A DNA stretch of 37,199 bases from a virus (taxonomy: Duplodnaviria > Caudoviricetes), in IMG/VR virus record IMGVR_UViG_3300030372_005973, positions 1 to 37,199 of that record. One strand, written 5' to 3'. The notes under the pieces were generated by a model. The model had not been told where the DNA came from. It was given only the letters and a program-made list of their open reading frames with translations, and made no database searches. Below are positions 1 to 23,282 of the stretch, piece by piece. The number at the start of each line of letters is the position of its first letter. The stretch's first letter is position 1. Position numbers and translations under genes: made by a program.

Positions 1-819
1 TTAAAATAGTTTTAAATCATCTCTTGGGTTGCTCAGATCATAATTTGCTGTCAACACTTCAATTTTCTTCTTTCCTGGTCTGCCTGTGCCATTTGCTACA
101 CTTACACTTTGTTCCAACTGCATTGTATGCCACCTGTTGGCATCGCTGTATTGCTTCAATATATCACTGGGATAGCTACTCATCAAAAACTTACCCTGAA
201 TGCCTTGGAGCGTCTTTAATAGGTTTTCAAAGTCATCTTGGCTATATCCATCATAGTGGCCACAATCGCTATTGAAGTATGGCGGATCGCAATAATGAAA
301 CGCATCTTTGTGGTCCCGACTATTGATAACCCGCAGCGCATCGGTACATTCCACTTGCACATTCTGCATCCTGATGGCCAAATCAATTGTGAAATCCTCA
401 CGTTTATTGGTTATCTTCTTACTGGTAGTGCCTTTCATCCTGTCGTACCCAAAAGAACCATCCAGCATACTGCTGAAGCTTTGAGCAGCCAGAACCCAAA
501 CAGCCCACGCTCTTTTTAATCTATCAAACATGTGAGGATTATTATAAATGACCGTCGCATCATTATGCAGGGATCGGCTGTGGAGACTTATACGAACTAA
601 TTTCTCCAGTTCTACAAATTCATTCTGTACGCACTCATAGAAGTTGATCAGCTCTCGATTGTAATCATTGATGATTTCCGTTTCACTCTTTGGTTTTGCC
701 CAGAAGATGGCACCGCCACCAACAAAAGGTTCCACGTATGTTGAATGATCCGGAATCAATGGCAAAATGGTGCTCACTAAATTCTGTTTACCTCCGTAAT
801 AACTTGTTGGTGTCTTCAT
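1..819 (-). CDS. Dam-family (D12 class) N6-adenine DNA methyltransferase
   Basis: YYGGK N-terminus, EPFVGGGA SAM-binding motif, IINDYN, catalytic DPPY, FLMSSY. Confidence 0.9.
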   Translation of the reverse strand: MKTPTSYYGGKQNLVSTILPLIPDHSTYVEPFVGGGAIFWAKPKSETEIINDYNRELINFYECVQNEFVELEKLVRISLHSRSLHNDATVIYNNPHMFDRLKRAWAVWVLAAQSFSSMLDGSFGYDRMKGTTSKKITNKREDFTIDLAIRMQNVQVECTDALRVINSRDHKDAFHYCDPPYFNSDCGHYDGYSQDDFENLLKTLQGIQGKFLMSSYPSDILKQYSDANRWHTMQLEQSVSVANGTGRPGKKKIEVLTANYDLSNPRDDLKLF

Positions 820-1475
820 ACGTTCAATGTGAATTTTGTTGAGCCACCAGCAAGCAGTTCCTTTGTGCCTTCAATATTATTTTGATAGATATGGACATTG
901 CCCAGGAATAAAGTAATTGATTTCAGCTGTACATCAATCTGCTTACTTATCAGATATAAGTGGTAGATATCGGCAGGCAATCCCAAACTGGCATCGCTCG
1001 AGCGCTGATACGCCGATACAATCAATTTCCCTTTTTCAATCTGAAACTGTATCAAGCTCAGGCACGGTTGCTGATTACTTTCAGCATTTGTCTGGCCAAG
1101 AAAAAGCACGTAATTTTTGCTATTTCTTTTCTCCCGGTTAATCTTTTCAATTAGCCTGGGCAATTGCTCAAAATAGGTAGGGTAGCTGTTTACCAGTATT
1201 GGTCCGCAATAGTCCCACCAAGTTACTCCAGCTTCACGGTAAGCTTCCGTAGAGCGCTCACCGGCCATAAACAGGTTGAGCTCATCCTTTAATTTCTTTC
1301 TGGCCATTCCGTGGCCCTCAAAGATTTCCAAGAGGTCTATTGGTTTGAGAACCAATGTTTCATTAAGCAGATACTGTATATCTCCCTTTTTGTTCTTTTG
1401 AATTTTACCTTTTTCAAGGATTTTTACAAGCATTCTATGATACTTGTTCTGTCTTGTTTTTGTTATATTTGTCAT
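816..1475 (-). CDS. Thymidylate synthase-fold protein, probable dCMP methyl/hydroxymethyltransferase
   Basis: QPCLSLIQFQ (catalytic Cys), YQRSSDASLGLPADI, GNVHIY; ATG at 1475 preferred over TTG at 1484; overlaps the MTase start by 4 nt. Confidence 0.85.
   Translation of the reverse strand: MTNITKTRQNKYHRMLVKILEKGKIQKNKKGDIQYLLNETLVLKPIDLLEIFEGHGMARKKLKDELNLFMAGERSTEAYREAGVTWWDYCGPILVNSYPTYFEQLPRLIEKINREKRNSKNYVLFLGQTNAESNQQPCLSLIQFQIEKGKLIVSAYQRSSDASLGLPADIYHLYLISKQIDVQLKSITLFLGNVHIYQNNIEGTKELLAGGSTKFTLNV
1464..1471 (+). promoter_or_regulatory. Bacteroidota -7 promoter box TATATTTG, divergent from and overlapping the TS-fold gene
   Basis: Exact TAnnTTTG match with TTG 17 nt upstream (1444-1446); points directly into a long hairpin. 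Confidence 0.6.
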
Positions 1476-1584
1476 CTCACTCAATTAAAAAATCCATTCC
1501 TAAGTTCAAGGCTTTGCCCTCGGTTCCAGGAATGGATTTTAATATTTAATTGAGTGAGATCGTTAAGTATGCCGGGGGTTTTTT
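1474..1584 (+). ncRNA. Candidate structured ncRNA: long hairpin plus loop-tail pseudoknot
   Basis: Arms 1474-1501 and 1528-1560 are complementary apart from one bulge; loop GCCCTCGGT (1516-1524) can pair with GCCGGGGGT (1571-1579); T-run follows. Confidence 0.6.
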
Positions 1585-1786
1585 ATACCCGCAGTTGTTC
1601 GGGGTTACTTTTCCCTTTTTGATAGGCCTGAATGCCTTTATCGGCTACCCGGACACCAAATAACAATCCTTCAAAAGTTAATACCAGGCCACAATGTTCG
1701 TGGCCGTTCAATAACAGCGCTGTAGCTGTTAGTACTATCGATGCAATTACTGCAGTCCAAAAATTGCTCACTATTTTAGTTTCCAT
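1583..1786 (-). CDS. Small two-TM membrane protein, holin-like
   Basis: ATG at 1786 (METKIV...), two hydrophobic segments, basic C-terminus. Confidence 0.5.
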   Translation of the reverse strand: METKIVSNFWTAVIASIVLTATALLLNGHEHCGLVLTFEGLLFGVRVADKGIQAYQKGKSNPEQLRV

Positions 1787-20774: not shown

Positions 20775-23282
20775 ATGGCAAAACAAAGCAGCACACACAG
20801 TAAGATTGGTAAATCTTATGTAGCCTATACCGGCAAAATAAAAACTGGAGGTTTACGAATGACTTCCCAGGACATCAGTAATTGGGTTCGGGCCATTAAC
20901 GCGGCAAAAAGCAAAAATCCAAAACGGAAAATGCTTTATGAGCTGTATGAAAATATTATCATCGATGGCCACCTTGAGAGCGTGATGGAAAAAAGGACCG
21001 TTTCAGTGATCAACAAAAAATTGATTTTTACCGAAAAGAATAAAAGCGGTGCTGAGAATGAATTTATGCAGGAATTTGTACTTGAAACTCCTTGGATGCG
21101 CGAGCTCTTGAAAAAATCTATGGAAGCCATTTATTACGGCCATTCACTTATTGAACTTATTCCAAAGGAAGGAATGATTGATAAAGTTGTATTGGTACCA
21201 CGGCAAAATGTAATTCCGGAGACTGGCTTTGTAATGGAAGATACGGGAACCCCGGACAAAGGAGCATTTTATCGCGAGGAAGGTTTCCAATATTACAATT
21301 ACCTTATTGAAGTTGGTGGCCCTAAGGATTTGGGTAAACTAATGACAACCGCACAATACATCATTTACAAGCGTGGGGGCTTTGGTGATTGGGCACAGTT
21401 TGCCGAAATATTCGGATCACCTTTCCGTGTGGGTAAATACAATAAATATGATGATGACGTTCGCCATAATTTGGAGAAATCATTAAACGAAATGGGATCT
21501 GCTCCCTATGCTGTAATCCCGGAAGGGGCATCTATTGAATTTGTTGATAACAACCAAACTGGAAAGAGTGAGGTTTTCAGTAAGCTTATTGAATTCTGTA
21601 ATTCTGAAATTTCTAAACAGTATGTGGGTCAAACTATGACAACGGAAGATGGTTCCAGTAGAAGCCAATCTGAGGTGCATAAGGAAGTTGAGGAAGAACT
21701 CAATCTATCCGATATGATTGAAATGGAATTTATGCTCAACTGGCAATTTGTACCGAAGCTTCGGAATATCGGATATAATATACCTGAAGGAAAAATCCAT
21801 TTTGATCAAACAAAAGCCCTGCCAATTGAAAAGCGTATCGAAATCGATATGAAGGTTTCAGAAAAAGTACCGTATCCAGACGAGTACTGGTACTCTACAT
21901 ACGGAATTGATAAACCTACAGCTGAAGAAATTGCCAGAAAGCAAAAGGAAAAAGAGGAGGCTAATAAAAATAATCCGCCTCCAGCTGATCCGCCACCGGC
22001 TAATCCAAAAAAAGAAGATCCTTCAAAAAAAAAAGTAGATCCTAAAGCGGAAAAAATTCCAGATCCTGTAGAATTTGTAAACGCCTATGAGCCAACGGAT
22101 GAAGATGAGCAATACATAAAGGATTTCTTTGATAAGGCGCGCACGTATTCTCCGGAGAAATTCCAAAAGGAACTGAAAAAACTTACTTCCGGGATACGCA
22201 AACAATTTCCTACTTCCATAGGCTATATGGAACCGGACTACATTGCCGGAACCATGCTGGAGCTCAACCTTAACCGTTTCGGTTACAGCAAAACAATTGC
22301 CCAGGTATTTGAACTTAATAAAGCTTTGGATATCCAAGGGGGTTATGGAGCCTTTAGAAAGAAAGCGGTGGCCATAATGGGAAATTTTGATAATTACCTG
22401 CAGACGGAATATAACGATGCCATAGCTACCGCCCAAAATGCCGCCAATTACATACGTCAAATGAAGGATATAAAGCTTTTCCCGTATTGGCGTTATGAAA
22501 CCGTTGGTGATGACAAAGTTCGTGCATCACACGCAGCGCTCGATGGAAAAGTGTTTGCGCTGAAGGACGTAAAATCACGCCAATTCATTCCGCCAAATGA
22601 GCATAACTGCAGATGTTTTACAACCGCGTTGAGAGCAGCTGAAGTAAAAGAGGCAGATGTAATCGATTTTGAAAAAGGCAAGAAAGCCCTGGGCAAAGAT
22701 TTTGATAAAATGAAGGATAATGGTTTCTTGGCCAACCGGGGCGAAACGCTCGAGGTTTTTGATTTGGCCAAAGCCTATATCGACAAATTAAAAACGATTC
22801 CGGAAACTGAAGCTGCAGATTATTCTCTTTGGGGACTTCAGAAAATTGAAGAAATTAGAAAGACCAGGAAACTGAAAAAATTGAATTTCAATAAAACGGA
22901 TACTCCAGCTAAATTGATTAAGGATTTTGATAAAAACAAAGTTACGATTACAAACCGGGAAGTAAATATTCTAACAGATTATTCCGGACGTGAAATTGCT
23001 ATCTCTGAAACATCATTTAAAAAGCATTTAAAGGGTAATTATATAACCAAAGAAAGCCGGGACCAAATCTGGAACAATGTAAAAAACATACTTTCGGATC
23101 CTGACGAAGTTTGGTTGAATGTTTTCTCCGGAGAAAGTCAGTACGAATATTTGAAATTCTTTGATGATGAAATTATGGTTGTGGCCGTTCAAATTACAAA
23201 GGCCCGGGGAATGGAAATTAAAACCTGGTACATCAGCAGAAAAGCGGAAAACAAATTACGACGGGGAATTTTAATAAAATAG
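20775..23282 (+). CDS. Portal (DUF935/gp29) - MuF - PBECR-like nuclease fusion
   Basis: Portal motifs (WAQFAEIFGSPFR, GQTMTT, SRSQSEVH); Pro/Lys linker; MuF (LQTEY, YETVGDDKVRASH, PPNEHNCRC); C-terminal LSDPDEVW...YLKFF...KTWY...RRGILI. Confidence 0.82.
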   Translation: MAKQSSTHSKIGKSYVAYTGKIKTGGLRMTSQDISNWVRAINAAKSKNPKRKMLYELYENIIIDGHLESVMEKRTVSVINKKLIFTEKNKSGAENEFMQEFVLETPWMRELLKKSMEAIYYGHSLIELIPKEGMIDKVVLVPRQNVIPETGFVMEDTGTPDKGAFYREEGFQYYNYLIEVGGPKDLGKLMTTAQYIIYKRGGFGDWAQFAEIFGSPFRVGKYNKYDDDVRHNLEKSLNEMGSAPYAVIPEGASIEFVDNNQTGKSEVFSKLIEFCNSEISKQYVGQTMTTEDGSSRSQSEVHKEVEEELNLSDMIEMEFMLNWQFVPKLRNIGYNIPEGKIHFDQTKALPIEKRIEIDMKVSEKVPYPDEYWYSTYGIDKPTAEEIARKQKEKEEANKNNPPPADPPPANPKKEDPSKKKVDPKAEKIPDPVEFVNAYEPTDEDEQYIKDFFDKARTYSPEKFQKELKKLTSGIRKQFPTSIGYMEPDYIAGTMLELNLNRFGYSKTIAQVFELNKALDIQGGYGAFRKKAVAIMGNFDNYLQTEYNDAIATAQNAANYIRQMKDIKLFPYWRYETVGDDKVRASHAALDGKVFALKDVKSRQFIPPNEHNCRCFTTALRAAEVKEADVIDFEKGKKALGKDFDKMKDNGFLANRGETLEVFDLAKAYIDKLKTIPETEAADYSLWGLQKIEEIRKTRKLKKLNFNKTDTPAKLIKDFDKNKVTITNREVNILTDYSGREIAISETSFKKHLKGNYITKESRDQIWNNVKNILSDPDEVWLNVFSGESQYEYLKFFDDEIMVVAVQITKARGMEIKTWYISRKAENKLRRGILIK

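Follow-up and report, generated by a model that had tools for sequence, protein, structure and literature searches.

The control of Mom, of broad methylases and of dCMP-type enzymes in Mu-like phages of Bacteroidota that carry no Com is a question to which the literature searched gave no answer. Mom harms the host and is tightly controlled, as described in PMC3299994. The window, i.e., the whole stretch of 37,199 nt analysed here, is an entire Mu-like prophage encoding an S24 repressor-like peptidase, a transposase (phrog_310), AAA ATPases, a Mu portal-MuF protein, Gp36, a protease and tail genes. In agreement with the first-pass annotation, no Com-like gene was evident, since no CxxC..CxxC peptide is encoded in the window and the sole pattern match crosses a stop codon. 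One 835-aa ORF at 20775-23282 fuses portal, MuF and a PBECR nuclease domain. The element described here lies near the window end distal to the transposase, between the last late gene and a TS-fold/D12 methylase cassette. By sequence comparison, it represents a conserved and portable cassette, predicted to encode an RNA, that heads the last late operon in many temperate, Mu-like phages of Bacteroidota.

The first gene of the window cassette (816..1475, - strand; PF00303) encodes a thymidylate-synthase-fold (TS-fold) protein with at least 8000 relatives. Alignment to solved thymidylate synthases showed that the catalytic Cys is kept and that Asp stands where the solved enzymes have Asn, which we take to be the dCMP-type signature; the enzyme is thus predicted to be of the dCMP type. 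The final phage gene (1..819, - strand; PF02086, TIGR00571) encodes a D12-class DNA adenine methyltransferase that is 84% identical to the methylase of Winogradskyella phage Peternella_1, and close relatives bear Flavobacterium and Formosa names. On the other side of the element, the last late gene (1583..1786, - strand) encodes a membrane-like protein of 67 aa that gave no match in Pfam and PHROG searches. A similar 66-aa ORF occupies the same slot in a related locus (L551).

The first-pass annotation had described a promoter motif, a hairpin, a loop-tail pairing with G-U pairs and a T-run at this site, and every one of these sequence statements held. On the + strand, a TTG (1444..1446) that may be the -33 motif of a primary-sigma promoter of the Bacteroidota type is followed after 17 nt by TATATTTG (1464..1471), the window's version of the -7 box TAnnTTTG of the putative antisense promoter. 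Both motifs lie within codons 2-11 of the TS-like ORF, which starts on the - strand with the ATG at 1475-1473. The predicted antisense small RNA (1476..1584, + strand; ~109 nt; model R1, 64 bits) has its 5' end placed from the -7 box. The stem consists of two perfect helices separated by a 5-nt bulge, namely the 15-bp helix A (1474-1488 with 1546-1560), which is used on both strands and shows double changes at 8 of 9 pairs, and the 13-bp helix B (1489-1501 with 1528-1540), which by its own score passes, in 95 of 99 elements, the 95th percentile of shuffles. The loop box c' (1516-1524, + strand) pairs with the tail box b' (1571-1579, + strand) at nine of nine positions, three of them G-U, to form the long-range helix C, next to which stands the U-run (1579-1584, + strand), the predicted termination point; across the family, 5-8 T occur within the 8 nt after the tail in 97/99 elements.

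Three further pairings, which the first-pass annotation did not include, were recognised. Box E (1542..1549, + strand), made up of the bulge and the top of the 3' arm of helix A, pairs with box E' in the linker (1563..1570, + strand) and likely excludes helix A. On the - strand, the mRNA leader has a tip hairpin D (1508..1520; 1520-1516 with 1512-1508, one G-U) that is mismatched on the antisense strand. Box a (1587..1595) pairs with box b across the A-run, and the stop codon of the last late gene falls within the a:b loop; box a was assigned to the - strand, an assignment that wobble counts do not settle (35/17 by strand in one count, 25/35 in another). The region 1470-1590 gave folding z-scores of -5.8 on the + strand and -8.7 on the - strand, and 0 of 200 shuffles were as stable. 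A sigma-70 promoter and terminator scan of the window did not pick up the element.

To define the distribution of the element, loci were fetched by protein without the use of the RNA (80 TS, 73 Mom and 80 ABC-GNAT loci, many of the last near-identical). With a structural detector, the element was recognised in 71/80 TS, 60/73 Mom and 73/80 ABC-GNAT loci, each time on the opposite strand and no more than 1.3 kb upstream. Its background was 22 matches in a 3.2-Mb host genome, in which a second copy of the element was looked for and not found. A covariance model recovered 5/8, 5/13 and 5/7 of the respective detector misses (15 of the 28 submitted, which did not include L022; L434, at an E value of 0.03 only, is left out of the 15), so that the element is present in 219/233 loci. 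With 22 candidates scored per genome, model matches also occurred in at least 2/150 genomes of the phylum and at least 6/150 of the family. Among cultured phages, hankyphage jmh43, Porphyromonas phage007a, fF4 and Peternella_1 carry the element; BF1-TP2, the com-bearing SuMu, Mcat3 and a Helicobacter prophage do not. Seven pattern matches outside Bacteroidota, among the 80 genome-collection matches listed, failed the model and were treated as chance, as were the pattern matches at L471 and L518, which gave no match to it.

Anatomy was counted on 99 non-redundant elements (85% cut-off), with wobble pairs tallied by strand. In two pattern scans that did not require the box, TAnnTTTG was found on the opposite strand within 95 nt upstream in 221 of 226 matches, compared with a chance level of ~0.06. 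It was also invariant in 40/40 aligned elements, in rows chosen by the detector that required the box. TAnnTTTG is the consensus of the Bacteroidota primary-sigma -7 element according to PMC7366714. The -33 TTG, at a spacer of 16-21, was present in 38/99 elements vs 13-24/99 in control windows. The promoter-driven, structured RNA of ~110 nt proposed in the first-pass annotation thus finds support: the -7 box and the fold are conserved, and the TTG is kept only loosely. The RNA appears to be non-coding: an ATG ORF of at least 15 codons occurs in only 27/100, and the arms vary by indels.

In Rfam 15, no match at gathering score was obtained for the element in the window, 20 phage loci, 8 genome loci and the hankyphage copy, and weak miRNA matches were hairpin noise. 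The element is therefore an RNA family absent from Rfam. No description of its promoter, structure or function was found in the literature searched, which did not cover subscription papers. RT-3 RNA (RF03068) was observed ~2 kb upstream of the element in five loci (L053, L065, L070, L072, and L078).

Cargo was counted for the 94 elements with at least 1.5 kb downstream among 159 distinct pattern-found elements. The first gene behind the element encodes an 81-aa Mor-like HTH protein in 42, a D12 methylase in 20, a TS in 10, ABC-GNAT in 7, a ParB-methylase in 6, a 40-60 aa peptide in 2, lysis proteins in 2, a C5 methylase in 1, Mom in 1 and others in 3. A modification gene follows in 91/94 and a holin-endolysin lysis cassette in 3/94, and true Mom genes (PF25680) are also preceded by the element. 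The cargo is thus swappable, comprising TS-like, Dam, Mom, C5 and N6 methylase and GNAT genes and three lysis operons. The first-pass annotation had offered the RNA as a partner of the TS-fold enzyme, i.e., an antitoxin, inhibitor or guide. The element does adjoin the TS gene in the window, and TS is among the first ORFs in 55/94. However, TS is missing from the other 39, and the element, a single copy on the opposite strand, also stands ahead of Dam, Mom, ParB-methylase, C5 methylase, ABC-GNAT and lysis genes. With its swappable cargo the element is not a TS partner, and a dedicated partnership is hardly credible. As the element marks the 5' edge of the cassette, unknown cargo could be found from the RNA alone.

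Several cargo observations deserve mention in their own right. The 81-aa Mor-like HTH protein (L225:2152-2394), the commonest first gene in Bacteroidales (hankyphage hp44), is a candidate regulator of the cassette and is noted as a lead only. In some Bacteroides phages, a holin-amidase lysis cassette takes the place of the modification genes at L201, L222, L230, L611, and L635. The 40-60 aa peptide lies between the element and an ABC-GNAT-formyltransferase cassette (L543:1768-1896, L136:2102-2284); it bears the annotation 'acr candidate' in Porphyromonas phage007a and is more likely a member of the modification operon. In other Bacteroidales phages, the element stands ahead of unannotated genes, after lysis or tail genes (L724, L757, and L695), and a HicAB-like pair, recognised by eye, lies behind a methylase at L462:3067-3713.

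A second proposal of the first-pass annotation was a translational lock analogous to the hairpin of Mu mom, in which the start codon would be concealed in the rod until a factor frees it. In the window, the A and U of the AUG are indeed paired in the mRNA-strand fold, as had been noted, and the rod pairs these first two bases in four relatives as well; the genome slot is the same as that of mom. In the family, however, an in-frame ATG lies inside the stem in at most 9/99 elements, five of them at the window's position, and the AUG is at least 10 nt from the rod in 89/99 (median gap 28 nt). Since the start codon is reached in so few relatives, there is no general AUG lock. The overlap is mostly confined to the window's lineage, in which the start codon appears to have moved up to the stem. 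The lock would also require an opening factor, and no Com is encoded in the window; it further leaves the opposite-strand promoter, helix C and the U-run unaccounted for. The analogy with mom thus stands for the genomic slot and for the Mom genes that the family precedes, and the lock itself is very unlikely as an explanation of the element.

The conservation of the fold was then evaluated by covariation, which the first-pass annotation had named as a check next to homologues. The joint covariation score of helices A, C and E was reached by 0 of 500 shuffles. A tree inferred from the very same elements placed at least 63 exchanges of one Watson-Crick pair type for another in helix C. Helix E had at least 6 Watson-Crick pairs in 65/99 elements compared with 17% in cross-element and 8% in shuffled controls (anchored test), and box a paired with box b over at least 5 bp in 65/99 elements vs 25/495 control windows, with the pairing type tracking the tail type. 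Cruder tests of helices E and a:b had shown no excess over shuffles (5 and 9 of 99 elements), which the anchored tests did. RNAalifold, run on a MAFFT alignment, recovered no more than 6 pairs, the stems being of variable length. In all, six pairings covary or are enriched across the family.

The distribution of wobble pairs showed which strand each fold suits. The rod contained 121 antisense and 114 mRNA G-U wobbles in the 99 elements. Helix C contained 88 vs 14, an antisense count that is inflated because detection demanded 7 bp of C compatible with G-U pairing; one inner position showed 23 U-G vs 0 C-A and the edge position 37 vs 1. Helix E likewise leaned to the antisense strand (49 vs 18), and hairpin D to the mRNA strand (129 vs 9). 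The loop box was more open on the antisense strand, where hairpin D is mismatched, in 93/100. Wobble on both strands indicates that selection acts on the folds of both, a sign that the first-pass annotation had not recorded. Judged from these patterns, the loop-tail helix and the U-run fit the antisense RNA and the tip hairpin the mRNA; the long stem fits either strand.

Some of these features could be explained by control within the mRNA leader, through processing or attenuation at the rod, combined with interference from the opposing promoter; helix C would then only be a terminator protecting the late genes, and the RNA a by-product. Of 99 phage copies, 63 have the more stable rod on the mRNA strand and 36 on the antisense strand, and hairpin D is specific to the mRNA. 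The leader passes through a b:c fold in 78/100 partial folds and in none of the full folds, and the stop codon of the upstream gene is mostly 14-35 nt from the A-run. In addition, the rod starts 0-4 nt after the -7 box in 95/99, so the outermost rod pairs may exist in the mRNA only. Against this explanation, E and C covary on the antisense strand beyond the need of a plain terminator, and chromosomal copies described below keep the antisense fold without a downstream gene. We consider leader control quite improbable as the main function.

The antisense RNA itself is not easily folded into one state. Mean energies were -50 kcal/mol for the nested rod, -33 kcal/mol for the nested fold with C forced and -19 kcal/mol for the C duplex alone. 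In a pseudoknot, helices A and E are mutually exclusive and a 10-nt linker is short for a 30-bp rod. Given this exclusion, the short linker and the energies, the antisense RNA would be a two-state molecule, a bent pseudoknot or, alternatively, a dimer.

On balance, we favour the reading that a cis-antisense small RNA performs the gating job of Com from a host-type promoter and restrains the cassette until late transcription. The primary-sigma promoter, taken to be constitutive, would fire in the lysogen against the late read-through transcript, and the antisense RNA would fold into a rod of ~30 bp whose loop box is left open by the mismatches of the tip hairpin on this strand. Its 3' tail would pair back to the loop, extended by E:E', beside the U-run and thereby end the transcript as a long-range terminator. 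The mRNA leader, the exact complement, would hide the same boxes (c:d, probably a:b) and fold straight into a rod. Pairing of the RNA with the leader, probably aided by head-on transcription, would destroy or stop leaky transcripts (RNase III or Rho), and the host-harming modification or lysis cargo would stay low until late transcription outruns the antisense RNA. The burial of the AUG would be an extra in the window's lineage.

Gating by antisense RNA is supported by the upstream, opposite-strand position of the element in the three sets of protein-fetched loci, by the opposite-strand box in 221/226 matches and by the modification cargo in 91/94. The four phages without the element, com-bearing SuMu, Mcat3, BF1-TP2 and the Helicobacter prophage, point the same way, as do the antisense wobble of C, the mRNA wobble of D and the rod wobble of the chromosomal copies (23 vs 3, see below). 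By position, the predicted RNA is fully complementary to the 5' leader of the cassette. On the other side, the nested rod outcompetes the C-forced fold, and helix C, conserved and G+C, is long-range. The elaborate fold exceeds the need of simple antisense pairing, and the chromosomal copies have no cis target; both count against gating.

Expression data were available for hankyphage as bulk RNA-seq (supplement files 9 and 13 of PMC12135933) of a lysogen that induces spontaneously. The Avd-hp44 gap that holds the element is at about 40551-40693 of PV107405.1, minus strand. At 0 h, the hp44 signal behind the element was 4.0-7.7 fold below that of Avd ahead of it in 6/6 samples, compared with an RT/Avd ratio of ~1, and upon repressor silencing the cassette rose by 0.7-4.4 log2 (1-22 h). 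Both observations in these files are consistent with gating. However, the fall persisted upon induction, at 2.7-6.1 fold in the samples of 6 h, and almost vanished in the uninduced control of that time point (1.1-1.4 fold), and a larger fall of 6-16 fold occurred between ThyA and the methylase, where the element is absent (PMC12135933); these files thus also hold evidence against gating. Two sequencing runs labelled miRNA-Seq gave long contigs, are probably DNA and speak neither for nor against expression. The element offers one testable object for all such phages, including the very common gut hankyphage, for which a lysogen with CRISPRi and stranded RNA-seq exists (B. thetaiotaomicron jmh43).

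A catalogued RNA may belong to the same family. HMP2_1881, a candidate RNA with a 108-nt model and instances of 108-126 nt in Bacteroides and Parabacteroides, was expressed in 13/13 instances at RPKM 304-28,854 (Fremin and Bhatt 2021, PMC8040213). Its neighbours include Phage_Mu_F, NAT_SF, ABC, MethyltransfD12 and thyA, the commonest being a radical SAM gene, and the accessible part of PMC8040213 gives no function, promoter or strand logic. Compared by length, taxon and neighbours only, HMP2_1881 may be the same family as the element: length, taxon and the ABC, NAT, D12 and thyA neighbours agree, and the radical SAM neighbour of HMP2_1881 was seen next to none of the elements. In a family search over 401 genomes, the element was present in 0 of the 30 radical SAM loci fetched, and no radical SAM cargo was seen in 4 phage-collection records or behind the 74 and 75 distinct elements of two pattern scans. 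If the identity, made by description only, is correct, the element would provide a possible function for an abundant orphan catalogue RNA. Among the candidates of Fremin 2023 (PMC10690425) adjacent to D12 or TS genes, five measure 49-98 nt and are listed under Firmicutes, Proteobacteria or no host, and a sixth, DNAVirus_549, did not occur in the file searched. By description only, DNAVirus_452 (a marine candidate of 98 nt next to TS; PMC10690425) may be a relative.

The cis-antisense RNAs of plasmids and phages, such as the ColIb-P9 Inc RNA with its repZ pseudoknot, R1 CopA, the pT181 RNAI attenuator, lambda PaQ/OOP and P22 sar, have their own promoter facing the leader, a length of ~100 nt, full complementarity and an open loop, and their target leaders adopt alternative folds coupled to an upstream ORF. 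The element resembles them in its opposite promoter (a sequence motif only), its predicted length of ~110 nt, its full complementarity, its open loop and a leader with alternative predicted folds linked to an upstream ORF. In contrast, it has a single long rod, the place of a local terminator hairpin is taken by a loop-tail helix of long range at the U-run, its pseudoknot-like pairing lies in the antisense RNA rather than in the mRNA, its cargo is swappable and it has no Rfam match. Type III toxin-antitoxin RNAs (ToxI, CptI, TenpI) and the AbiF RNA lie on the same strand as one fixed protein partner, with tandem repeats in the ToxI type. The element shares with these a pseudoknot-like small RNA beside a potentially toxic gene, but it is on the opposite strand, in single copy and without a fixed partner.

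We know of no structure common to the element and the DonS-type cis-antisense RNAs of Bacteroides. The latter are 78-128 nt long, lower the expression of the facing gene and face susC genes of host operons (PMC7366714). With Mu com-mom, as described in PMC3299994, the element has in common the right-end, late, host-harming modification slot of a transposable phage and a structured leader, and it precedes Mom and D12 methylase genes; it differs in that Com is missing, the AUG is usually outside the stem, and an opposite-strand promoter with a predicted RNA is added. The element accordingly falls outside Mu com-mom, type III toxin-antitoxin and all Rfam families. It may work like known cis-antisense systems, and HMP2_1881 may be an earlier catalogue entry for it, with no function assigned. 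As an RNA family it would be an addition, notable for an unusual long-range terminator or switch. In Haemophilus phage SuMu, a stretch upstream of com (L828:875-1024) folds into several hairpins on its antisense strand (z -4.4; sense -0.5); the element model gave no match there, and the structure is different.

Copies free of phage genes, absent from the first-pass annotation, were also found. In Paenimyroides, Myroides and Flavobacterium, nine matches from the genome collection have neither a phage gene nor a modification gene in their vicinity. The orphan loci (L460:1946-2074, L461, L463, L466, L467, L477, L488, L499, L523, L834, and L835) lie next to DUF421-, SDR-, Dps- and CinA-like host genes, labelled from ORF reading, and genome G667 carries two copies; none of the claims made here depends on the unpublished genome G460. 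The orphans favour the antisense fold: their rods contain 23 antisense vs 3 mRNA wobbles, and the antisense strand folds better in 9/10, counted on close kin that are not independent. The tip hairpin D is degraded in several of them, not all.

A free-standing RNA gene with a trans function, as a protein decoy, two-state switch or self-pairing multimer, with the cassette placement secondary, would account for these copies. In this Flavobacterium/Paenimyroides clade they keep the promoter, helices and U-run, and their 3' half is nearly invariant as the flanks diverge. The window transposase gave no match in 5/5 orphan genomes vs matches in 4/4 genomes with phage-type copies. A companion box whose sequence complements the A'/E region of the orphan RNA, together with a terminator-like hairpin, is conserved 150-280 nt upstream (L832:1547-1600, with counterparts in L833-L838 and L463) and stands inverted 660 nt away in one genome, so that it accompanies the orphans in either orientation. 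It gave no Rfam match at gathering score, and it is possibly a sponge or target. Rod and helix C, strained in one molecule, would moreover form easily head-to-tail in a dimer, and HMP2_1881, if of the same family, is very abundant (PMC8040213). Against a trans function as the primary one, 91/94 phage copies stand directly ahead of modification genes, the mRNA strand has its own selected hairpin D, the orphans occur in only 6/201 genus genomes searched and are close kin, and the pairing with the companion box (-21 to -25 kcal/mol) surpasses controls (-16 to -24 kcal/mol) by a modest margin only. We therefore regard a trans function as primary role as unlikely.

Gating by a cis-antisense RNA and the orphan copies can be brought together in a wider proposal, which we put forward tentatively as a possibility. 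A protein-free, two-faced RNA switch may have replaced Com across Bacteroidota transposable phages, as a 130-bp cassette of which both strands fold and whose antisense RNA would terminate itself by a loop-tail helix toggling against its own rod. Some Flavobacterium hosts might then have kept the RNA, together with the complementary companion RNA, as a trans regulator of phage leaders or host transcripts.
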